A stretch of 64,000 nucleotides of DNA from an uncultured Acidobacteriota bacterium (GCA_963770895.1 CAVYRF010000002.1:2208001-2272000); one strand, 5' to 3'; shown: positions 3,745-15,833, counted from the stretch's first letter. The notes: generated by a model from the sequence alone, not told the origin. A program made the numbers and translations.

Positions 3745-4052
3745 GCCGACCTCCTTATGAGAAGGGGCGCAACAGTACGGCCCTTGGGTACCTTGATGCA
3801 TCGATTATACGCAATCGCATACCTCAAGACCACGACCTGTTATTTCTCCGGTAGAAGACGATGATGCGCATAGGTGGGGGGAGTTTGGCGGCGCGGTTGC
3901 TGCGCTGGACACTGTGCGAAGCTCGTGCTTTACTAGCTTTAAGTGAAAGTCAATAGTTCCCTCGCCGCGACCTTAACTTTAAAATACATTCATTGTTGAG
4001 CTGTCTCTGCAGAGCCGGGCGTCCCCCGGCGCGTAGAGGAAAGGTTTCCGCC

Positions 4053-5153
4053 ATGGATTTCGGCCTGATGTTTTTCGCCAGCGACAAGATCGGCCAGAGC
4101 GGCAAAGGCGCCGAGCGCTATGCGCTGCTGCTTGCGGCGTCGCGCTTTGCCGACCAGCACGGCTTCAGCGCCATCTGGACCCCCGAGCGTCACTTCCATT
4201 CCTTCGGCGGCATCTTCCCGAATCCGGCGGTCACCAGCGCCGCGCTCGCGGTGACGACCGAGCGGCTGGAGATCCGGGCGGGTAGCCTGATCTCGCCGCT
4301 GCACGATCCGATCCGCATCGCCGAGGAGTGGGCGGTGGTCGACAACCTGTCCAACGGCCGCGTCGCGATCTCCTTCGGCTCGGGATGGAACATTAACGAT
4401 TTCATTTTCTTTCCCGAGCGCTATAACACTCGCCAAGCGGTGATGCACGAGCAGATTCGCGAAGTCAAGGAAATCTGGAAAACGGGTGTGGCGAAGCGCA
4501 CCAACAGCCGCGGCGAGCCGGTCGAAATTGCGATCTATCCGCGGCCGATCCAGGCCGAGCTGCCGGTGTGGATCACCTCCTCCGGCAACGTCGACACCTT
4601 CGTCAGCGCCGGCCGCGCCGGCGCCAATCTGCTCACCCATCTGATCGGCCAGGACCTGCCGACCCTGGCGACCAAAATCGCCAGCTACCGCGCGGCGCGG
4701 CGCGAGGCGGGGCACGACCCGGCCGCCGGGCGCGTGGCCCTCATGCTCCACACCTTCCTCGGCAACGACATCGACGCCGTCAAGGAGACGGTGCGCAAGC
4801 CGTTCACCGCCTACATCGCCTCCGCCATCCGGCTGGAAGAAAAGGCCGCGAGCGCCGGCGGCGTGATGAGCGGCGGCCGCCTCATGGACCCCAGCGGCGT
4901 GCCGAGCGAAGTCTTCGACGAGCTGCTCGAGCTGACCTTCGAGCGCTACTTCCACACCGCGGCCCTCATGGGCACGCCGGCCTCCTGCCGCCAGTTCGTC
5001 GGCGAGGTGGCGCGGGCGGGCGTCGACGAAGCGGCCTGCCTCATCGACTTCCTCGGCGACGAAGACGCCATTCTCGGCGGCCTCGACCTGCTCGATCGTC
5101 TGCGCCAGGACTGCGCCGCCGACAAAACTCTTTCGCAAGGGGGAAAAACGTGA
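4053..5153 (+). CDS. MupA/Atu3671-type luciferase-like flavin-dependent monooxygenase
   Basis: MDFGLMFF, WTPERHFHSFGGIFPNP, PLHDPIRIAEEWAVVDNLSNGRV, GANLLTHLIGQ. Confidence 0.9.
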   Translation: MDFGLMFFASDKIGQSGKGAERYALLLAASRFADQHGFSAIWTPERHFHSFGGIFPNPAVTSAALAVTTERLEIRAGSLISPLHDPIRIAEEWAVVDNLSNGRVAISFGSGWNINDFIFFPERYNTRQAVMHEQIREVKEIWKTGVAKRTNSRGEPVEIAIYPRPIQAELPVWITSSGNVDTFVSAGRAGANLLTHLIGQDLPTLATKIASYRAARREAGHDPAAGRVALMLHTFLGNDIDAVKETVRKPFTAYIASAIRLEEKAASAGGVMSGGRLMDPSGVPSEVFDELLELTFERYFHTAALMGTPASCRQFVGEVARAGVDEAACLIDFLGDEDAILGGLDLLDRLRQDCAADKTLSQGGKT

Positions 5154-6520: not shown

Positions 6521-8887
6521 ATGAGCGCTACGCCGGCGCCGCGCTCTGTGCGCCCTCGTTCTTCGCGGACAGCGCGCGGCAGGCCGCTCGCCGAGCTGCT
6601 GGCGACCTGCCTGGAAGCGCCGCGCCGGATCGACCGGCGGGTGGTGGCGCGGCTGGTGCGCGAGCTGGCGCCGGGCGGCGCCGATCCGCGGCTCGCCCTG
6701 GTGCTGCTGGCTGCATTGGTCTATGCCCGGCCCGGTCTGCTGCGCGCCGGCGACACCGCGCTGCTCGACCGCCTGCAGGCGCTGTGGCACGAAGCCCTGA
6801 CAACCGACCTCGCGGCACCGCTGGGCGCCGCCGTGCGGGCGGTGGCACAGACCGCCCTCGGCCCGGCGCTGGCCGCCCGCCTGCTGTTGCCCGCGCCTGG
6901 CCCGGGTGCCTCCGGCGCCCCTGGTGGCGCGGCGGCGCCGCTCGCCGGCGAGCGGCTGGACTGGCTGCGCTTCTTGGTGACGCGGTATCCCGACTGGATC
7001 GACCTCGATGCGCTCATCCGCTGCTGCGGCGTCGCCGCCGGCATGGTCGACAGCGAACGGGTGCTGGGAGAGCTGGTCGAACCGCTTCTCCACCATGCGC
7101 CCGAATCCTTCACGCCGGCGCGCCTGGACGCGCTGCGCGCGGCGTTCGGTGCGACCGAGCGCTGGCGCTACTTCGCGGCCTTTCTTGCCACGGAGCCGGC
7201 GGCGCCGTCCGCCACCCGGCACCGCGCCGCGGCGGCGCTTGCCGGGCAGCTGCCACGGTGCGGCGAGGCGAGGCGGCTGCGCGGCGGGCCGATGCGCTTG
7301 GCGGTGGTGCAGAACGTCGTCTTCGGCCAGGGCGACGAGCTGATCCGCCTGGCGCCGCTGCTGCAGGCGTTGCTCGACGGCCTGCCGCGGCTCGCCATCA
7401 CCCTGCTGACGCCGCGCCCCTACCTGTACGACCACCCGCGCGTGCGGGTGCTGCCGATCGGCGACTCGGCCGGCGCCGCGGCGCTGGACGGCGACTTCGA
7501 CGGGCTGATCGAGCTCTGGGAGCCCGAGGTCGCCGAGCTGAACGTCGTACCGGCGCTGCACGAGCGGGCCCGGCTGCTGGCGGCGCGACGGCCGCTCCGC
7601 CTGGAGATCGCCTGCAACCTCGGCGTCAATCACTTCGCCTTCCAGAAGGTCGCCCTCGACGGCGTCGACATCGCCGCCCGCCTGGGGCTGGACCGCCGGA
7701 CGGCACGGCAGGTCTACGATCCGGTCCGCCGCTTGCTCGTCGAGCTGGGCCTGCCTTTGCGCCGCGAACACGCGCCGCCGGCGCGCTCGCTGCTGGTCGG
7801 CATTCCGTCGCCCGAGGCGGAGGCGGCCTGGCGCGCCTTGGCTCCGGCGGGCCGTCCGGTGGCGCTCGTCAGCCCATTCGGCGGCACCCGAGAGATCAAG
7901 GGATACGCCACCGACAGACTGGACATCCTGGCGGGTGAGCTGCGCCAGCTGGTGCGTCAGGGCTATCGCGTGGTGGTGCTGCCCAACGGCCAGCCCTGGG
8001 TGACGCCCGACGTCATGGCCGCCCTGGTGACGCGGCTGCCGGTCGCCGAGCGCCGCCACCTGGCGGTGGCTCCCGATCCGGCAGGCCCGCTTCGGGCACC
8101 GTTACCCGGCGTGGACGGCGAGCGGCCCGACCTGCGGCGGCCGGCCGACCGCGTCATGCGTTGGTTCAAGTACTTCGCCGCGCGTGCCGACCTGGTGGTG
8201 AGCGTCGAGGGCTGGCTGTCCCACCTCGGCTGGCAGCTCGGTCGGCCGCTGCGAGTGGTGCTGGCGGCGCAGTCGTACGACGAGGCGTGGTACCCGCCGG
8301 CGCGCGACCGCGCGCAGCGGATCGTGGACCGGATTGCAAGCTGCCCGCCGCAGCGCGGCCGAGGGCGGGCGCCCGATTTGCTTGGCGACGGCGACCGGCC
8401 GCCGCTTCCCGGCCGCGACCGCAAGCAGCTGCTGGTCGCCGCCCTCGCCGGGCTGGGCGCCGCGGGGGGAGCCGCGGTGGAGCCGCTGCTGCTGCGGGCC
8501 GCCGGCAGCGCCGACGAGGATGTGCGAGCCGCGGCGCTCGCCGCCCTGGGCAGGCTGCCGCAGCACGAGGGCATCCGCCGGACGCTGCTGGCGGCGCTGG
8601 GCGCAGCGGACCCCGAGGTGCGGGGAGCGGCGGCGGAAGGGCTCCTGGCAAGCGGGTTCGACTGCGCGCCGGAGCTTGGCGAACGCTATCGTGACGTGCT
8701 CACCGCGCACGTGGCGATCGCCGCGCGTGCCTGGGTGAGCGTCGACGATCTCGGCGCCCCGGCCATCCCGGCGCTGGCGGTCGCCGCCGCCGGGCGGGAC
8801 GACTTCATGCGCCGTGAGGCGCGCTGGCTCCTGGGCAGGCTGCTGCGGCGGCAGGTCAGGCCGTCGCGGCAGGCGGGCGGCCGGTGA
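6521..8887 (+). CDS. Glycosyltransferase family 9-like protein with C-terminal HEAT repeats
   Basis: GQGDELIRLAPLLQAL and ADLVVSVEGWLSHLGWQLGRP resemble GT9 motifs; DEDVRAAALAALG and DPEVRGAAAEGL are HEAT-like. Confidence 0.65.
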   Translation: MSATPAPRSVRPRSSRTARGRPLAELLATCLEAPRRIDRRVVARLVRELAPGGADPRLALVLLAALVYARPGLLRAGDTALLDRLQALWHEALTTDLAAPLGAAVRAVAQTALGPALAARLLLPAPGPGASGAPGGAAAPLAGERLDWLRFLVTRYPDWIDLDALIRCCGVAAGMVDSERVLGELVEPLLHHAPESFTPARLDALRAAFGATERWRYFAAFLATEPAAPSATRHRAAAALAGQLPRCGEARRLRGGPMRLAVVQNVVFGQGDELIRLAPLLQALLDGLPRLAITLLTPRPYLYDHPRVRVLPIGDSAGAAALDGDFDGLIELWEPEVAELNVVPALHERARLLAARRPLRLEIACNLGVNHFAFQKVALDGVDIAARLGLDRRTARQVYDPVRRLLVELGLPLRREHAPPARSLLVGIPSPEAEAAWRALAPAGRPVALVSPFGGTREIKGYATDRLDILAGELRQLVRQGYRVVVLPNGQPWVTPDVMAALVTRLPVAERRHLAVAPDPAGPLRAPLPGVDGERPDLRRPADRVMRWFKYFAARADLVVSVEGWLSHLGWQLGRPLRVVLAAQSYDEAWYPPARDRAQRIVDRIASCPPQRGRGRAPDLLGDGDRPPLPGRDRKQLLVAALAGLGAAGGAAVEPLLLRAAGSADEDVRAAALAALGRLPQHEGIRRTLLAALGAADPEVRGAAAEGLLASGFDCAPELGERYRDVLTAHVAIAARAWVSVDDLGAPAIPALAVAAAGRDDFMRREARWLLGRLLRRQVRPSRQAGGR

Positions 8888-10013
8888 GAAAGCGGCTGGC
8901 GGCCGGCGCACCCCCGGCCTGCGCCTCGGCCAGCTGGCGCTTGGTGCGGAACTCCAGCTCGCGGCCGCCGCCGCACGCCTCGGCGCGCCCGTAGCATGCG
9001 GCGCTCTCGGCGAAGCGCCCCAGGCGGAAGTTGCACAGCCCGGCGGCGTCCCAGGCGAGCACGCCGAAGATCCGCTCGTCGTGCGCCAGCTGCCCGGCGC
9101 AGAGCGCCGCCGGATCGACGGCGGTGAGGCGGGACAGCAGCGGCAGCGCCGCCTCCGGGCAGCCGCCGGCGAGCAGGTGGCGCGCCCGCAACCAGACCAG
9201 CGTCCACTGGTCGGGAAACGCCGCCGCGGCTTCGGCCAGCAGGCCGTCCACCGGCTCGCCCAGCTCCATCAGCACCTGCAGCATGCCGACGTAGACCAGA
9301 CTGTCGGTCGCCGCCGGCGCCCGGGCGGCGCGCACCACGGCGAGGCCGCTCTGGTAGGCGGTACGCGCCGCCTCCAGATCGCCGATGCCATGCAGCGTGC
9401 TGCCGAGGTGCCACCAGGCATAGACGTGCTCGGGCTCGGCGCGCAGCCGCGCCTCGAGCAGCGGCCGGTTGCGCCGGTGCTTGGCCGCCATGTCGCCGTC
9501 GTAGCCCAGGTGGTCGATCGCCAGGTCGCTCTCGCCGATGGTGCCGCCGCCCTGGCGCAGCAGCTCGCCGAGCGCCGGCAGGTGGCTCTCGTGGATGACG
9601 CCGCGGAAGCGCAGGCGCGGGTCGTTGCGGAACAGACGGTGCTCGCGGTAGCGGGTGAAGCCGCGCGCCGGCCGGAAGCGCACCGTGCAGGCCAGCAGGC
9701 GAGGATCGGCGAGCTGCTCGGCGAGGCGGGAGCGGCCGGCCTCGCACACCCGCTCGTCGGCATCGATGTAGAGGACCCACCTGCCGCGCACCGCGTCCAG
9801 CGCTGCGTTGCGTGCCGCGGCAAAATCCTGCCGCCACGGGAAGTCGACGACGCGGGCGCCATGGCGATGGGCGATCTCGCGGCTGCGGTCGACGGAGCCG
9901 GTGTCGGCGATCACCACCTCATCGGCGACGCCATGGAGCGACTCCAGGCAGCCGTCCAGGAAGCGCTCCTCGTCGCGCACGATCATCGCGGCGCTGAGCA
10001 GCAGCGAGCTCAC
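8856..10013 (-). CDS. Glycosyltransferase family 2 with TPR repeats (SunS-like architecture)
   Basis: MIVRDEERFLDGCL, DTGSVDRS, DFAAARN, IDADE, IHE, HLGY, followed by TPR-like helices; start approximate. Confidence 0.88.
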   Translation of the reverse strand: MSSLLLSAAMIVRDEERFLDGCLESLHGVADEVVIADTGSVDRSREIAHRHGARVVDFPWRQDFAAARNAALDAVRGRWVLYIDADERVCEAGRSRLAEQLADPRLLACTVRFRPARGFTRYREHRLFRNDPRLRFRGVIHESHLPALGELLRQGGGTIGESDLAIDHLGYDGDMAAKHRRNRPLLEARLRAEPEHVYAWWHLGSTLHGIGDLEAARTAYQSGLAVVRAARAPAATDSLVYVGMLQVLMELGEPVDGLLAEAAAAFPDQWTLVWLRARHLLAGGCPEAALPLLSRLTAVDPAALCAGQLAHDERIFGVLAWDAAGLCNFRLGRFAESAACYGRAEACGGGRELEFRTKRQLAEAQAGGAPAASRFLTGRPPAATA

Positions 10014-10041
10014 CGGCGTTTCGGGGGCAGCGTGCCTGCCA

Positions 10042-10518
10042 CTAGTACGGCACGACGTAGACGACGATCTGGAAGACCGCGCTGTCACCGCCCAGCAGGT
10101 TGGCGATGCTGGCCTGCACCGTGCCGCCGCTGCCCACCGGCGGCGTCACCAGCGACCATGCCGGATCGCCGCTCAGCTTGGACGCCGAGACAAAGGTGGT
10201 CCCGGCCGGCAGGGGATCGACGAGCGAGACCGCCGGCGCCAAGCTGCCGGTGCAGTTCTGCACCGTGATGGTGTAGGTGAGGTTGTTGCCGGCGGTCACC
10301 TCGGCGGCGGAGACGGTCTTCTGGACGTCCACCAGCGGGCCGATGTTGGCGGCGCAGAGGTTCGATCCCTGGCCGAGGGCCTGCTCGGCGAGCAGGCCGC
10401 CGAGCGTGAAGGAGGCGACGAGCGGCGTCGCCCAGGCCCCTGCCAGCATGCGCAGGATGAACTGCCGCCGATCGGGGTCGACGTGCGGGAGGATCTGGGT
10501 CAGCTCTTCGGGCGCCAT
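10042..10518 (-). CDS. Tat-signal protein with C-terminally truncated DUF11 domain (paralog B; retains Lys and Asp)
   Basis: GGAGG RBS; DRRQFI; VDVQKT...LTYTITVQN...VDPLPAGTTFVSA; ends at AVFQIVVYVVPY. Confidence 0.8.
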   Translation of the reverse strand: MAPEELTQILPHVDPDRRQFILRMLAGAWATPLVASFTLGGLLAEQALGQGSNLCAANIGPLVDVQKTVSAAEVTAGNNLTYTITVQNCTGSLAPAVSLVDPLPAGTTFVSASKLSGDPAWSLVTPPVGSGGTVQASIANLLGGDSAVFQIVVYVVPY

Positions 10519-10916
10519 GGGCGTCTGCCTCCAGAGAGTCGAGTGGCGTGCGGCGGGCGGCGCAGGTACGCCAGCGCCGTCGCGGCCAGCAGCAGGCAGG
10601 AGATGACGAGCCCCGCCGGCGACAGCGCCGGCACCTGGGCGATCGGACCGCGATCGACCTGGGTGGTCGCGGTCGCCGTGCGGTGCACGGTGACGGTCGC
10701 CTGCGCCTGGTTGTTGCCGGTCTGCGGGTCGCTCTCCGAGGCGGTGACGCCCGCCGCGGCATCGATCAGGTAGTCGAGCGTCACCGTGTTGGTGATCTCG
10801 ACCGCGGCCCTGGCGCTGGGTGCGCCCAGGGTCCACAGCACCGCCAGGCAGAGCGCTGCCGCCGAGCGCGGCAGCAGGCGGCGAAGCGGCAAACCGGCGC
10901 CTTGCGGGTCCGCCAT
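10500..10916 (-). CDS. Small Sec-exported protein with DUF11 terminal strands and IPTL-CTERM-like sorting signal
   Basis: ATG overlaps upstream TGA (TGATG); signal peptide ending ARA; ITNTVT; SESDPQTGNNQAQATVTV; VPALSPAGLVISCLLLAATALAYLRR. Confidence 0.75.
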   Translation of the reverse strand: MADPQGAGLPLRRLLPRSAAALCLAVLWTLGAPSARAAVEITNTVTLDYLIDAAAGVTASESDPQTGNNQAQATVTVHRTATATTQVDRGPIAQVPALSPAGLVISCLLLAATALAYLRRPPHATRLSGGRRPWRPKS

Positions 10917-11410
10917 CAGAGCACCGTCGCCTTGATCGCGAAGGTCGCGCTGGCGCCCTTCGCCAGGCTGTCGAAGACGCCCGCCACGGTACCGGCGAAA
11001 CCCACGGGAGGCGTGGACAGGTCGGTGACGGGGGGCCCGGTGAGCTGCGTGGCGGAAACGAAGGCGGCGCCCACGGGCACCTTCTGGTCGAAATTCACGT
11101 TGGTGGCCGTGCAGGGTCCGCAGTTGGTCACCGTCAGAGTGTAGGTGATGGTGTCGCCCGGCGACGCGGTCTGCGGCGACGCCGCCACTCCCACCGCGAC
11201 GTCGGCCATGGCCGGATTGCCGCAGATAGCGCCGGTGTTGGCGCACAGGTTGGATGCCTGCGCCCGCGCCGGTTCGACCAGCAGCCCGTCGAGCGAGAAC
11301 GAGGCGACGATCGGCGCCGCGTAGGCGGCACCCAGGAGCAGCCTGGAGAGGAACTGACGGCGGTCCGGAGCGAGCCCATCGAACCGTTGCGGTTTTGCGT
11401 CTGGCGCCAT
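10916..11410 (-). CDS. Tat-signal protein with C-terminally truncated DUF11 domain (paralog A; lacks strand-A Lys)
   Basis: DRRQFL; ADVAVGVAASP...GDTITYTLTVTNCGPCTATNV...VPVGAAFVSA; ends at ASATFAIKATVL. Confidence 0.8.
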   Translation of the reverse strand: MAPDAKPQRFDGLAPDRRQFLSRLLLGAAYAAPIVASFSLDGLLVEPARAQASNLCANTGAICGNPAMADVAVGVAASPQTASPGDTITYTLTVTNCGPCTATNVNFDQKVPVGAAFVSATQLTGPPVTDLSTPPVGFAGTVAGVFDSLAKGASATFAIKATVL

Positions 11411-11561
11411 GGATCGATCCTTTATTTCATGATCTGCGTGTCGCGAAAGGTCCAGAAATCCCTTGTTTTCTTCGCTTCCGCAGTGCCTTTGGCACAGTGC
11501 GCCGAACTTTGTGCATGGAACTTGTGCATGGTAAATATGCGGGCAATGGGGTGTCAAGCTT

Positions 11562-12305
11562 TTGCCGTACCTTAGAGCGGGCAGCTGGGATGACGCCATC
11601 TGGCGCTCGGTGGCGGACGATTATCCGGCGGTGCCTGCCCGCTTCGCGGCCGGCGACGTGGTGCTCGACCTGGGCGCGCACATCGGCGCCTTCGCCGCTC
11701 TCGCCGCCGCCCGCGGCGCACGCGTGGTGGCCTACGAAGCCAGCTGGCACAACCTGGCGCTGGCGCGTCTCAACACCGCCTCGCTGGCAGGGGTTGAAGT
11801 GCGGTGGGGCGCGGTCTGGCGCTCCGACCTGCCGCCGGCGCCCCGCTGGTACACGCCGGCGCCCAACGCCGCCAACACCGGCGGCGGCTCGGTGCTCTTC
11901 GCCGGTGCCATGGCGGTGAGCGCCGATGCCGGCGTCGACCCGTGGGGCGCCGGCACTGGCCGAGATGCCGAAGTTGAGGTGGCGCCGCGGGCGCACGCGG
12001 TGCCGGCGGTGCCGCTCGACGACATCCTGTGCGAGCTCGGCGCGGTGCGCCTGCTCAAGCTCGACGTCGAAGGTTCCGAGGTGCCGATCCTGGCCACCTC
12101 GCGCCAGCTCGCCAGGGTGGTGCAGATCACCGGCGAGGCACACGACCTGAGCGTCGGGCAGCAGGGCCGTCTGGCGCCCGACGCGCAGGTCGCGGGCGTA
12201 TCCTGCGATGCGAGCGGCCTTGCCGCAGTCCTCGGCGGCGCCGGCTTCACGGTGGCGATGACCGGTGCCGGGCCGCTGCGGCTGTTCAATGCCTGGCGGG
12301 CCTGA
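11562..12305 (+). CDS. FkbM family methyltransferase
   Basis: VLDLGAHIG SAM motif, VVAYEA, LLKLDVEGSE; TTG start uncertain. Confidence 0.85.
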   Translation: MPYLRAGSWDDAIWRSVADDYPAVPARFAAGDVVLDLGAHIGAFAALAAARGARVVAYEASWHNLALARLNTASLAGVEVRWGAVWRSDLPPAPRWYTPAPNAANTGGGSVLFAGAMAVSADAGVDPWGAGTGRDAEVEVAPRAHAVPAVPLDDILCELGAVRLLKLDVEGSEVPILATSRQLARVVQITGEAHDLSVGQQGRLAPDAQVAGVSCDASGLAAVLGGAGFTVAMTGAGPLRLFNAWRA

Positions 12306-12343
12306 CCGGCGCGCCGCCCGCCACCCGCTGCCCGCCACCCGCA

Positions 12344-13261
12344 ATGAGCACGCCCGTCATCTGCCTCTACAACCGCTTCTTCGAGCGCTGGCCGGTCGCC
12401 GCCGAGATCGGCGCCGAGATCGCTTTCCGGTTTGGCGCCGAGACTCTTGCCGGCGCCGACGCCGTGGTCTTCCATCTGCCGACGCTGGGTGTGCTTCCCG
12501 AGCGCCCCAGAGCTGCGGCGGGCGCCGGCGCCCCGCCGCAGCTCTGGGTGGCCTGGTGTCTGGAAAGCGCCGTCGTCTGTCCGCGGCTCGCCGACCCGCG
12601 GGCGATGGGGCGTTTCGATCTGACCATGACCTACCAACGATCGAGCGATGTCTGGTGGCCTTACTTCGGGCCCGGCACGGTGCCGCACCTGCTGGCGCCG
12701 CCGGGCGTCAAGGGTCCTGGCGCGCCGGTCGTGCACCTGCAATCCAACCCCTTCGATCGCAGCGGGCGCAACCGCTTCGCCGCCGGGCTGATGCGGCGCA
12801 TCAAGGTGGACTCCTACGGCACCGTCCTGCGCAACCGGACCGAGGTCGTGGCGCCCAGCTATGCGGGTCGCACCGCGGTCATGGCCCGCTACAAGTTCAC
12901 CCTGGCGCTCGAGAACTCCATCGCGCACGACTATGTGACCGACAAGTTCTTCGACGCGTTGGCGGCAGGCTCGGTGCCCGTCTACCGCGGCACCCGCGAG
13001 GTGGCCGATCTCGCGCCCGCGCCCGGCTGCTACATCGATGCGGCCGACTTCGCCTCGCCAAGCGAGCTCGCCGCGCACCTCGACCGCCTAGACCGCGACG
13101 ACGCCGCCTATGCCGCCCATCACGCCTGGCGCCATGGAGGCTTCTCGGAAGCTTTTCTCCAGCACCTCCGCCGCCTCGAACGGCCGCCCTTTGCCCGGCT
13201 GGCCGAGCACGTCCAGGACTGGATCGCGGCCGGCCGCCCGCCGCGGCAACGATCGGACTAG
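12344..13261 (+). CDS. Glycosyltransferase family 10 (alpha-1,3-fucosyltransferase-like)
   Basis: YKFTLALENSIAHDYVTDKFFDAL...VPVYRG; ADAVVFH; LTMTYQRSSDV. Confidence 0.9.
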   Translation: MSTPVICLYNRFFERWPVAAEIGAEIAFRFGAETLAGADAVVFHLPTLGVLPERPRAAAGAGAPPQLWVAWCLESAVVCPRLADPRAMGRFDLTMTYQRSSDVWWPYFGPGTVPHLLAPPGVKGPGAPVVHLQSNPFDRSGRNRFAAGLMRRIKVDSYGTVLRNRTEVVAPSYAGRTAVMARYKFTLALENSIAHDYVTDKFFDALAAGSVPVYRGTREVADLAPAPGCYIDAADFASPSELAAHLDRLDRDDAAYAAHHAWRHGGFSEAFLQHLRRLERPPFARLAEHVQDWIAAGRPPRQRSD

Positions 13262-13336
13262 CCTTCACCGCCTGCCACACTCCCACCGCTGGCGAGGCCG
13301 CCGCCCGTCCCGCGCGGAGTGCGGTGCAGACCGCTG

Positions 13337-13696
13337 TCAAGCCTGAGGCGCGATGCCAGAGCCGCCGGCGCCGTCGGCGGATGGCGGCGCCGCCTCGTCG
13401 ACTCCTTCGATCAATCCTTCCGCGAGGAACTGCGCCAGACATTCCGCCACCTCGTCGCGCGGCGGCTCGGGAAGATGGAAGCTCCGCGCCAGGAAGGACG
13501 GCAGGGCGGCAGCGGGCGTTGCGCCATCGCACAGCGTGAGCAAAAGAGCCGCGGTCCGGTTCAAGTAATGCACGCGGTCCCGCTCCGGGTGATAGGCGAC
13601 GAACCCGTCGGTCACCTCGCTGAGCTCGACACCTGCGGCCAGCCGCAGCCGCATCTGCCAATCGACCGCGGCGCCCCGCTCCACCGTCTCTCCCAT
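13337..13696 (-). CDS. Stand-alone PqqD-family protein / RiPP recognition element (RRE)
   Basis: About 119 aa; VHYLNRTAALLLTLCDG...EVAECLAQFLAEGLIE; AGGAG RBS. Confidence 0.85.
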   Translation of the reverse strand: MGETVERGAAVDWQMRLRLAAGVELSEVTDGFVAYHPERDRVHYLNRTAALLLTLCDGATPAAALPSFLARSFHLPEPPRDEVAECLAQFLAEGLIEGVDEAAPPSADGAGGSGIAPQA

Positions 13697-13871: not shown

Positions 13872-14675
13872 ATGAGTCGACTCACTCTCCGATGGTTCAA
13901 TCTCACTCAGCGCGATGGGCAGGACCTATGTCTGAAGATCCCAATTTGCAACGTTTATGCTCCGATAATCGATCGGGCTTTTCCTGAAGTGACGCACATC
14001 GAGTGGAGGCAGGGCACGCAAGGCACCTGCTTCACCTATCTCAAGCATATAACCTCCGAAGACTTTGACTCCCTCAACGACTTCCTCCAGCTTCTCGGCG
14101 AGATTCGCTGTCTAACGCTGACCGATCACCTCGCTCCGCACTTTCAAGCCGAACTGGACGAAGCATATGCGCTAGACTTCAATTTTCAGACAGATCTCTT
14201 CCCTCTTGCCTACACGGAAATGGGCAGTCTCGAACACATTGCGAAGGAGCAACAGAATCGCGCCGCCATAGCTCAACTCAACATCCGGCTTGCCGAAGTC
14301 ATCCGCCGCCACCCCTCACTTTCCCGCGTTGAGTTCGTTGCGCCAATGCCGCCGCGCCCCTCAAAGAATTTTCATCTCCCTGTTGAAATGGCTAAGGGCA
14401 TAGGTGCGATCTTGGGGTGCCCAGTCGACCTGAGTCTCACCAAGGCGGAGCATCCGAAACTTCGAACGCTTCCCATTAGGCAGAAGGTCTCCGCGCTTGA
14501 GGAAGCCTTCTCGATTGGAGGCTCGGTTGAAGGTAAAGCCATTCTAATCGTTGACGACCTTTACCAGTCTGGCGCAAGTCTTTGGTCGCTCGCCAGGTTT
14601 TTGAAGTCCCGCGGAGCCCGACTAGTCTATGGACTGGCATGCGTCAAGTCGTGGAGTGATACCGACAACCAATGA
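13872..14675 (+). CDS. Phosphoribosyltransferase-domain protein (ShosT/ComF-like)
   Basis: PRPP-binding motif ILIVDDLYQSGASL; visibly lower GC than flanks. Confidence 0.8.
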   Translation: MSRLTLRWFNLTQRDGQDLCLKIPICNVYAPIIDRAFPEVTHIEWRQGTQGTCFTYLKHITSEDFDSLNDFLQLLGEIRCLTLTDHLAPHFQAELDEAYALDFNFQTDLFPLAYTEMGSLEHIAKEQQNRAAIAQLNIRLAEVIRRHPSLSRVEFVAPMPPRPSKNFHLPVEMAKGIGAILGCPVDLSLTKAEHPKLRTLPIRQKVSALEEAFSIGGSVEGKAILIVDDLYQSGASLWSLARFLKSRGARLVYGLACVKSWSDTDNQ

Positions 14676-15646
14676 TGCAGCAAACTCAGTCCATTGAGTT
14701 CGTAGCTTTCTGTCTTCAGGCTGCGCCTGGAGTAGGCGCATCCACGCTTCGCATGGTTCTGAAACGCCTCGCTCAAGAACGGCTCGCACCAGAAGCCCTC
14801 TTCCAACTCGACGACCACGACTTGCTGTTGCGCTTCGGGCTCAAGCCCTCCGCTGTCGCTGCGCTCCGAGAGCCTTGCGACGAAACGCTGGAAACCTGGC
14901 AACGCCTCAAAGCGGAATCTGTGAAGATCCTTGTTTGGGGCCAGGCTGCCTACCCAACGCGGCTCTATACCCTCCTTCGCGACACTGCCCCTCCCTTGCT
15001 TTTTCTCGTCGGCGGGCTAGACAGTTTCGGACGTCCAGCAGTGGGCTTCTGCGGCTCCAGGAGGGCGTCTGAAAAGGGGTTGCGAGTAGCGCGCGATTGT
15101 GCGCATCTGCTGGCGAAACAACAAATCAATGTCGTCAGTGGTTACGCTCATGGCGTTGATCTCGCCGCGCATCGCGCAGCTTTGGAGGCGGGAGGTACTA
15201 CGACCGTCGTGTTGCCCGAGGGTATTCTTCACTTCCGGGTCAAGAGCGAAATTCGCGACTTGCTGAGCGCAGGAGACTTTTCGCGCATCGCCGTTGTGTC
15301 CGAGTTCCCTCCTGGCTTGCCGTGGCGGGCTCACAATGCAATGGCACGCAATCGTACGATCTGTGGCCTTTCACACGCGTTGGTCGTAATAGAATCAGGT
15401 CCGGATGGAGGCACATTCGAAGCAGGCAAAGCCGCACTTAAACTCGGTGAGCCTCTGTTCTGTATCGAATATGCCGAGACACCTCCAGAAGCGGCAGGTA
15501 ATCCGTACTTCTTGAAACATGGAGCCTTCAGTCTGAGGCGCGCGCCGAATGGCGAGCCTAACCTCTCCAGGCTCATGTCTGTCGTACGTGAGGGCGGCAG
15601 GAACTTTGGACAACCGCACCAGCAGGAGCTACTCCTGCACGAGTAA
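14672..15646 (+). CDS. DprA/Smf (SLOG) family protein (ShosA-like)
   Basis: YPTRL...PPLLF, GFCGSRRAS, VVSGYAHGVDLAAH, SEFPP, ARNRTI; ATGA overlap with the PRTase stop. Confidence 0.88.
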   Translation: MMQQTQSIEFVAFCLQAAPGVGASTLRMVLKRLAQERLAPEALFQLDDHDLLLRFGLKPSAVAALREPCDETLETWQRLKAESVKILVWGQAAYPTRLYTLLRDTAPPLLFLVGGLDSFGRPAVGFCGSRRASEKGLRVARDCAHLLAKQQINVVSGYAHGVDLAAHRAALEAGGTTTVVLPEGILHFRVKSEIRDLLSAGDFSRIAVVSEFPPGLPWRAHNAMARNRTICGLSHALVVIESGPDGGTFEAGKAALKLGEPLFCIEYAETPPEAAGNPYFLKHGAFSLRRAPNGEPNLSRLMSVVREGGRNFGQPHQQELLLHE

Positions 15647-15833
15647 TCAGGCTATTTCTGTAAATACCGCAATAAATTAAAACAGCTGATTCTGCGTGGC
15701 GGGGATCCGGCCGAGCTGCGCCTCTGGTTCCTCCCTTGAAGGCGCTTCATGCTCCAACGGCCCCAAAGTAAAGCGCGGCTCACGGGCTGTGCTTGGCCCG
15801 TCTGTATAAACTACGTAATCTGTGGTGTTTAGA

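Follow-up and report, generated by a model that had tools for sequence, protein, structure and literature searches.

A DUF11/CLIPPER module is divided among three overlapping genes of an uncultured Acidobacteriota bacterium, and we consider it probable that one long hairpin of the middle gene product, the tag, completes two truncated domains: catcher B at the hairpin base with an isopeptide bond, and catcher A at the hairpin tip non-covalently. Catchers A and B would each provide the first seven strands of one domain and the tag would provide the last two strands of both, with the base (residues 40-49 and 79-88) completing B and the tip (residues 50-77) completing A, so that A would stack on B. 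The tag would be exported by Sec and the catchers by twin-arginine-like leaders, and the C-terminal IPTL-CTERM-like signal of the tag would hold the whole module at the envelope, presumably at the surface. Under the influence of Asp101, Lys67 of catcher B would react with Asn43 of the tag to form a spontaneous Lys-Asn bond.

Three overlapping genes encode two catchers and a tag

The window, by which we mean the whole 64,000-nt stretch of DNA analysed, carries the three genes on the minus strand in the order catcher A, tag, catcher B (Table 1). The stop codon of catcher A overlaps the tag ATG by 1 nt and the end of the tag gene overlaps the start of catcher B by 19 nt. GC3 reaches 0.87 in catcher A, 0.89 in the tag and 0.94 in catcher B within a window of 70% GC, and because of this high GC3 and the overlapping gene ends all three open reading frames look coding. 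Minus-strand translation of 10500-10916 confirms that the 50-residue peptide behind the original prediction of two nested strand pairs is real and equals tag residues 38-87 exactly; counted from the start codon at 10916 it spans 10656-10805, so that the coordinates first proposed, 10654-10803, were off by 2 nt.

Table 1. Genes and tag segments at the catcher-tag locus of the window
Feature	Coordinates	Strand	Description
Catcher A (P0002, 164 aa)	10916..11410	-	Translation; twin-arginine-like leader; DUF11/CLIPPER profile 1-84 of 114
Tag gene (P0001, 138 aa)	10500..10916	-	Signal peptide, four strand-like segments, linker, IPTL-CTERM-like anchor, basic tail
Signal peptide, tag residues 1-37	10806..10916	-	Sec-type; cleavage after residue 37 judged by eye; layout in 10/10 tags of alignment A4
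Outer first strand, tag residues 40-49	10770..10799	-	Invariant Asn43, codon 10788-10790
Inner hairpin, tag residues 50-77	10686..10769	-	Aligns with canonical last two DUF11 strands; Asp52, codon 10761-10763
Outer second strand, tag residues 79-88	10653..10682	-	Best conserved mature segment
IPTL-CTERM-like sorting signal, tag residues 95-121	10554..10634	-	Motif, hydrophobic helix, Arg pair; below curated cut-offs
Catcher B (P0003, 158 aa)	10042..10518	-	Translation; twin-arginine-like leader; DUF11/CLIPPER profile 3-84 of 114
Family 2 glycosyltransferase with TPR repeats	8856..10088	-	Directly downstream of catcher B; true start probably after the listed GTG
FkbM-family methyltransferase	11562..12305	+	Between PqqD-like gene and catcher A
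Family 10 glycosyltransferase	12344..13261	+	Between PqqD-like gene and catcher A; recurs in L012 and L013
PqqD-like small protein (peptide-chaperone family)	13337..13690	-	Also before the catcher in L009 and L011-L013

The catchers are DUF11/CLIPPER domains that end after the seventh strand

Both catchers exceed the Pfam gathering score for DUF11 (PF01345; 55.3 bits for A and 49.6 bits for B, cut-off 24.6), whereas the tag alone falls below it (20.4 bits, profile positions 65-114), and the NCBIfam match of A and B is TIGR01451. DUF11 was recently renamed CLIPPER, and its domains form an intramolecular Lys-Asn isopeptide bond with a catalytic Asp according to the available text of the describing paper (PMC12617251). 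Folded alone with AlphaFold2 from a 50-row alignment, catcher B forms a block of seven strands with a pLDDT of 88-98 over residues 61-158. The top Foldseek match of this model is the CLIPPER domain 9IFR (E 4.3e-5, TM 0.64 on the target, rmsd 2.6 over 99 columns, 25% identity), in agreement with a CnaA-like Ig fold. Set against a full DUF11 domain from the same genome, the catchers end precisely where the seventh strand does and lack the strand with the Asn, the Asp-Pro...Asn-Asn loop and the final strand. The domain is not contained in one polypeptide: its last two strands are encoded by another gene, whose product has a signal peptide of its own, and the bond would therefore be intermolecular.

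Catchers A and B are paralogues that share 44-49% identity depending on the alignment. In the catchers an Arg-Arg-x-Phe motif and the hydrophobic stretch behind it are invariant, and the NCBIfam matches with E up to 1 included no Tat signal model. The catchers also have in common a Ser-Asn-Leu-Cys motif and an invariant leader. Two cysteines are invariant in all 50-56 catchers of alignments A3 and A5 (Cys55 and Cys89 in B), and this sequence pattern suggests a disulfide between the N-terminal piece and the turn that follows strand two; the A-types have an additional second Cys pair. A disulfide is an odd fit with a twin-arginine-type leader.

The tag carries two nested strand pairs

Aligned with seven single tags, the window tag corresponds to a single tag enlarged by two blocks of 10 residues that flank the loop symmetrically, one after the Asn-bearing strand and one before the last strand, and a relative 95-96% identical to it has the same blocks. 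A profile of 16 DUF11 domains from the same genome matches the window tag (full-sequence E 7.9e-9, best domain 1.3e-8) and aligns residues 50-77 with the last hairpin of the canonical domain, where Asp52 takes the place of the reactive Asn; it puts the Asn of the Thr-Asn-Thr motif of single tags L040 and L041 at that same position. These alignments together identify the inner hairpin, at the tip, as a canonical DUF11 end without Asn and the outer pair, at the base, as the part homologous to single tags that retains Asn43. The two lines of comparison thus agree on the nested arrangement initially proposed from the sequence. A simpler layout, with a single canonical strand pair in the tag and a linker in place of the outer second strand, was dropped in view of the block alignment, the DUF11 profile, the structural model and the conservation.

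The C terminus of the tag resembles IPTL-CTERM sorting signals (TIGR04174, PF18203) in its motif, hydrophobic helix and Arg cluster, and differs from them in being degenerate (17.8 bits over residues 95-121 against an NCBIfam cut-off of 20.5) and in the 17-residue basic tail that follows. The window tag is not among the 11 PF18203 matches of its own genome; paralogous tag C passes with 26.3 bits. PF18203 is carried by nine of the 16 proteins found with a tag profile, eight of them short single-type tags.

A three-chain model seats both catchers at once

We modeled residues 39-164 of catcher A, 38-158 of catcher B and 38-95 of the tag, with the tag as partner, our own alignment for each chain and the 1:1:1 ratio given as input. 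The three-chain prediction seats both catchers simultaneously, the outer pair in B and the inner hairpin in A, as anticipated, with ipSAE values of 0.91, 0.91 and 0.90, a tag pLDDT of 88-89 and at least 98% of contacts common to the runs. Replacing the tag by unrelated proteins gave 0.00 and 0.00 and replacing catcher A gave 0.52, with 219 confident contacts in the real complex and 92 after replacement of A. In calibration the mark was reached by 58 of 80 solved complexes and by 2 of 110 mismatched pairs, counts that hold only roughly here because own alignments and three chains were supplied. The top contacts on the B side set B residues 97-101 antiparallel to tag residues 45-49 and Lys67 against tag residue 81; those on the A side join A residues 105-108 to tag residues 55-59 and A residues 77, 81, 82 and 88 to tag residues 75-77. 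A and B use equivalent surfaces, their first and third strands. As the model rebuilds a fold with a solved structure (9IFR), the score may partly reflect likeness to that known fold.

The reactive triad is present for catcher B and absent for catcher A

The presumed reactive residues of catcher B are Lys67 (codon 10318-10320) and Asp101 (codon 10216-10218), and the Lys expected in this paralogue is thus present. They align with a Lys and an Asp of 9IFR that, from the alignment, we take to be Lys715 and Asp748, where the Lys-to-Asp spacing is 34 as counted in the alignment against 33 by the published numbering. The 9IFR triad is Lys715, Asp748 and Asn806 in the text available to us (PMC12617251). 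Tag Asn43 aligns with the profile Asn via single tags; a PDB search with a full DUF11 pair from the same genome, aimed at placing the 9IFR Asn, returned nothing useful. In catcher A the Lys position is taken by Val75 and that of the catalytic Asp by Gln109. No Lys occurs in the first strand of A (residues 69-77), as predicted, and the inner hairpin opposite has Asp52. The triad is therefore present for B with the outer strand and absent for A with the inner hairpin.

This division extends beyond the window. All five B-type rows of alignment A5 keep both Lys and the catalytic Asp, and Asn43 is invariant in the tags (10/10 in A4, 8/8 double tags in A6), which bears out the assignment of the outer pair to B. 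Among the A-types all eight rows, from three clusters, show Val or Ile in the column of the Lys and Gln in that of the Asp; the inner strand has Asp at its reactive position, replaced by Glu in lineage 2, in keeping with the assignment of the inner pair to A. Single-type catchers have the Lys in 34 of 43 cases (absent in 9/43) and the Asp in 42 of 43. The B-type/outer and A-type/inner pattern follows the covariation of Lys and Asn expected across homologous loci. Some single tags retain Asn where their catcher lacks Lys (L011-L013 and the P0018/P0139 pair). A conserved Asn beside a Lys-less catcher means that the Asn alone does not show a bond, and we rejected it as a bond marker. With Lys67, Asp101 and Asn43 all kept, B is probably locked covalently to the tag; with all three lost, A would be held non-covalently.

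The single-type catcher P0037 has Asn at both the Lys and the catalytic Asp columns; this double loss resembles that of the A-types but arose separately.

Double tags occur in three lineages and appear to share contigs with catchers

Searching all 1.84 billion representatives with phmmer gave four proteins with an E value no higher than 0.001. P0125 matches the window tag at 95-96% identity, P0150 at 52% and P0151 at 48%, the latter two being double tags of two further lineages; P0152, a repetitive protein of 548 aa that matches query residues 18-62 only and lacks the anchor, was set aside as unrelated. A word-index search found P0125 only when run with the tag alone, and no second-lineage double tag when run with the tag alignment. 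Eight double tags from the three lineages align without gaps over residues 38-100 (alignment A6), and because the four-segment layout is kept gap-free across them it is not due to chance. Within these tags six of the nine positions 80-88, in the outer second strand, are invariant and none in the inner loop. The inner reactive position is Asp in lineage 1, Glu in lineage 2 and Pro in lineage 3, where the inner strand holds an Asn-Thr-Ala motif, like the outer strand, one residue off the Asp52 column. P0133 has a Pro at residue 50, exactly the junction of outer and inner strands.

The distance from the Asn to the anchor Pro is 53 in all seven parsed double tags, with the same spacing in P0133 by alignment A6, compared with 29-33 in 13 single-tag rows (two pairs of which are the same protein twice) and 55 in L052. 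L012 and P0137 were mis-parsed and P0133 and P0144 were not parsed.

We judged co-location of tags and catchers indirectly, by the equal size of their recorded source contigs; that such sizes agree by chance is very unlikely. By this measure both an A-type and a B-type catcher share contigs with a double tag in two lineages, and no A-type was linked in lineage 3 (Table 2).

Table 2. Double tags and catchers linked by equal contig size
Contig	Tag	A-type catcher	B-type catcher	Basis
29630 bases	P0150	P0129	P0044	Equal contig size
66010 bases	P0153	P0127	P0131	Equal contig size
27885 bases	P0125	P0126 (fragment)	P0038	Equal contig size
2697 bases	P0133	P0040	P0134	Equal contig size
2777 bases	P0155	None linked	P0132	Equal contig size
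2060 bases	P0151	None linked	P0050	Equal contig size

The split family is small and occurs in uncultured soil Acidobacteriota

Of 8000 candidates scored with a profile built from six catchers, 123 proteins matched with an E value of 1e-10 or lower. About 55 of these are 154-177 residues long and cover nearly the whole query, and more than 20 tags are known from many metagenomes. At the one-catcher loci L009, L011-L013, L040 and L041 one catcher is directly followed by one tag of 88-101 residues, each with a signal peptide, one strand pair and an IPTL-type anchor; L050, which is cut within the catcher, has the same layout. L009 is a second catcher-tag locus of the window genome on another contig. 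Beyond the window genome itself, 3 of the other 91 genomes in its family encode small full-length catchers, and the genomes L052-L055, which encode full-length catchers, are Acidobacteriota or Thermoanaerobaculia MAGs. Among 400 further genomes taken as a sample of the phylum, none gave an A-type match with an E value of 1e-22 or lower. Locus scans of metagenomes and genomes returned only one-catcher loci and unsplit DUF11 proteins; double-tag loci are missing from these scans because the chosen patterns did not fit the B-types. The split family is small and so far confined to uncultured soil Acidobacteriota.

Unsplit proteins that end in DUF11 and an IPTL-type anchor are present in relatives (L051) and in the window genome, where several of the 11 PF18203 matches end multi-DUF11 proteins. 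A third class of tags, of 127 residues in L052 (tag locus 4001-4381) and 119 in P0144, has an insert between the two strands that does not resemble DUF11. The L052 tag has E 0.34 against the DUF11 profile in the locus scan, and E 0.024, below the inclusion threshold, with the own-genome profile; only one catcher was found at this locus and in 3.1 Mb of that genome.

Two further proteins share parts with the family. P0145 (231 aa) carries an orphan Asn-bearing strand pair after the signal peptide, followed by a complete DUF11 domain and an IPTL-type anchor, and the orphan hairpin could be a strand donor to a catcher encoded elsewhere. A short protein of L064 (3213-3773, from a Casimicrobiaceae MAG) has the catcher-type leader, with Arg-Arg and then a Val-Ala-Ser-Phe stretch, but lacks DUF11 altogether: immediately behind the leader come a small segment rich in Pro and a hydrophobic anchor bearing clustered Arg residues. 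The leader family therefore seems wider than the catchers, reaching another phylum.

Competition, insertion and decay as alternative readings

The nested arrangement has to be weighed against readings that give the tag fewer functions. Catchers A and B, paralogues at 44-49% identity, present equivalent interface residues in the model, and the Pfam and own-genome profiles align only one hairpin (about residues 50-77) with the canonical last strands, as might be expected if the tag had a single functional pair, the inner hairpin, to which A and B bind alternatively. The outer segments would then be linker, and two kinds of anchored one-domain proteins would result. The conservation of the outer second strand (6/9 invariant at 80-88) is unlike that of a linker, and it is the outer strands that are homologous to single tags. 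The sole reactive-position Asn sits on the outer strand, Lys and Asp occur only in B, and the model seats the catchers on different segments with ipSAE falling from 0.91 to 0.52 once A is replaced, all of which makes competition quite unlikely in our view. An alternative that keeps the outer pair for B and treats the inner hairpin as a decorative insertion in the last loop, with A completed otherwise or working alone, is unlikely as well. It gains from the L052 and P0144 tags, which are as long (distance 55 in L052) with one catcher in the locus and in 3.1 Mb, and from the 0.52 and 92 confident contacts that the model retains with A replaced. The window inner hairpin, however, matches the DUF11 profile at E 7.9e-9 and the L052 insert does not (E 0.34 and 0.024). 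A-types co-occur with double tags on four contigs as judged by equal contig sizes, catcher A overlaps the tag start codon, contacts between A and the inner hairpin are among the most confident pairs of the model, and an own-genome search gave no other tag-like partner for A.

It is scarcely credible that the locus is a decay product or annotation artefact, in which a fused DUF11 and IPTL-CTERM gene has broken into pieces that do not cooperate. Unsplit proteins of that composition do exist in relatives (L051) and in the genome itself, yet every piece here starts at a separate start codon, carries a separate signal sequence and is high in GC3, the split is kept in about 55 catchers and more than 20 tags from many metagenomes, and the break always falls at the same strand boundary. 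Completion of B by the hairpin base and of A by the hairpin tip thus remains our preferred reading.

Comparison with known isopeptide and strand-donation systems

The catchers and tag share with the CLIPPER domain 9IFR the Pfam family, the fold, the Lys/Asp/Asn triad, and an association with surface proteins and C-terminal sorting signals, as far as the available text of PMC12617251 describes them. The domains described there lie in one polypeptide with an intramolecular bond, whereas here the domain is split and one tag is nested for two domains; that text makes no mention of split forms. SpyTag/SpyCatcher and its relatives are engineered tag/catcher pairs from split isopeptide domains. Such engineered split pairs, among them welding parts derived from RrgA (PMC5333627; see also a CnaB survey, PMC5487036), resemble the proposed system in that an Ig-like isopeptide domain, as the large piece, and a short peptide reassemble and lock covalently. 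Those pairs are man-made, mostly with a one-strand tag, whereas the present one is natural, encoded in an operon and built around a two-strand hairpin with two nested tags of different chemistry, one with the triad and one without.

Completion of an incomplete Ig-like fold by a strand of another polypeptide also occurs in chaperone-usher pili and, in the portion of the report available (PMC9715654), in the archaeal thread of Sulfolobus, which combines strand donation with a proposed intermolecular isopeptide-type link and heavy glycosylation. In those systems identical subunits polymerize head to tail with one donor strand, whereas here a small anchored protein would donate hairpins to two different catchers and nothing points to a filament. 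Strand completion in trans is seen here in the model (ipSAE 0.91 against 0.52 in the best control), and no chaperone or usher genes were found among the scanned neighboring genes.

In the literature searched we found no description of either a naturally split isopeptide domain or a nested double tag; spontaneous isopeptide domains appear there as cross-links within one chain or in split pairs made by engineering. If true, a natural split version would mean that cells use isopeptide chemistry to join separate proteins after export, and would give a reason for building surface modules piecewise, such as different export or modification routes for body and anchor. Adhesion and glycan display are candidate biological roles of the split family. 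The nested double tag, if true, would be a ready-made design that holds three chains in fixed order through one covalent and one reversible joint, with direct use for protein engineers.

Neighboring genes and further observations

The TPR glycosyltransferase downstream of catcher B has as its best NCBIfam match the SunS peptide S-glycosyltransferase (57.6 bits, cut-off 350), and such a gene also follows the tag in L009, L011-L013 and L052. PqqD-like and SunS-like TPR glycosyltransferase genes recur beside catcher-tag genes at each of the loci read (window 8856-13690, L009 3514-5970, L011-L013, and L052 4359-5531). The cassette looks like one for leader-guided protein glycosylation, of which a catcher may be the substrate, which is a guess. 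A fuller version of our preferred reading, which we advance tentatively, is a natural tag/catcher system in which one anchored 58-residue peptide holds two nested orthogonal tags, B is joined covalently and A bond-free in an A-tag-B module at the surface, and the catchers are perhaps pre-glycosylated by this PqqD-like/SunS-like cassette.

Beside these genes, the stretch 13872-15800 has a GC content of 0.55-0.59 against about 0.72 around it and encodes a DprA/SLOG-type protein and a protein with a phosphoribosyltransferase domain; this stretch may be a small island of foreign DNA adjoining the glycosylation genes. The genome has a single exosortase-family match (39 bits), roughly 1 kb away from an open frame of 817 codons that weakly matches the C-terminal part of the tag (E 0.2; the pair is at G000 C2:5158691-5159122 and C2:5160185-5160379), and this match might be a sorting enzyme adjacent to one of its substrates. 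Within the window, 6521-8887 encodes a protein of 788 residues whose only family match is to HEAT repeats at its C terminus; its gene converges on that of the TPR glycosyltransferase.
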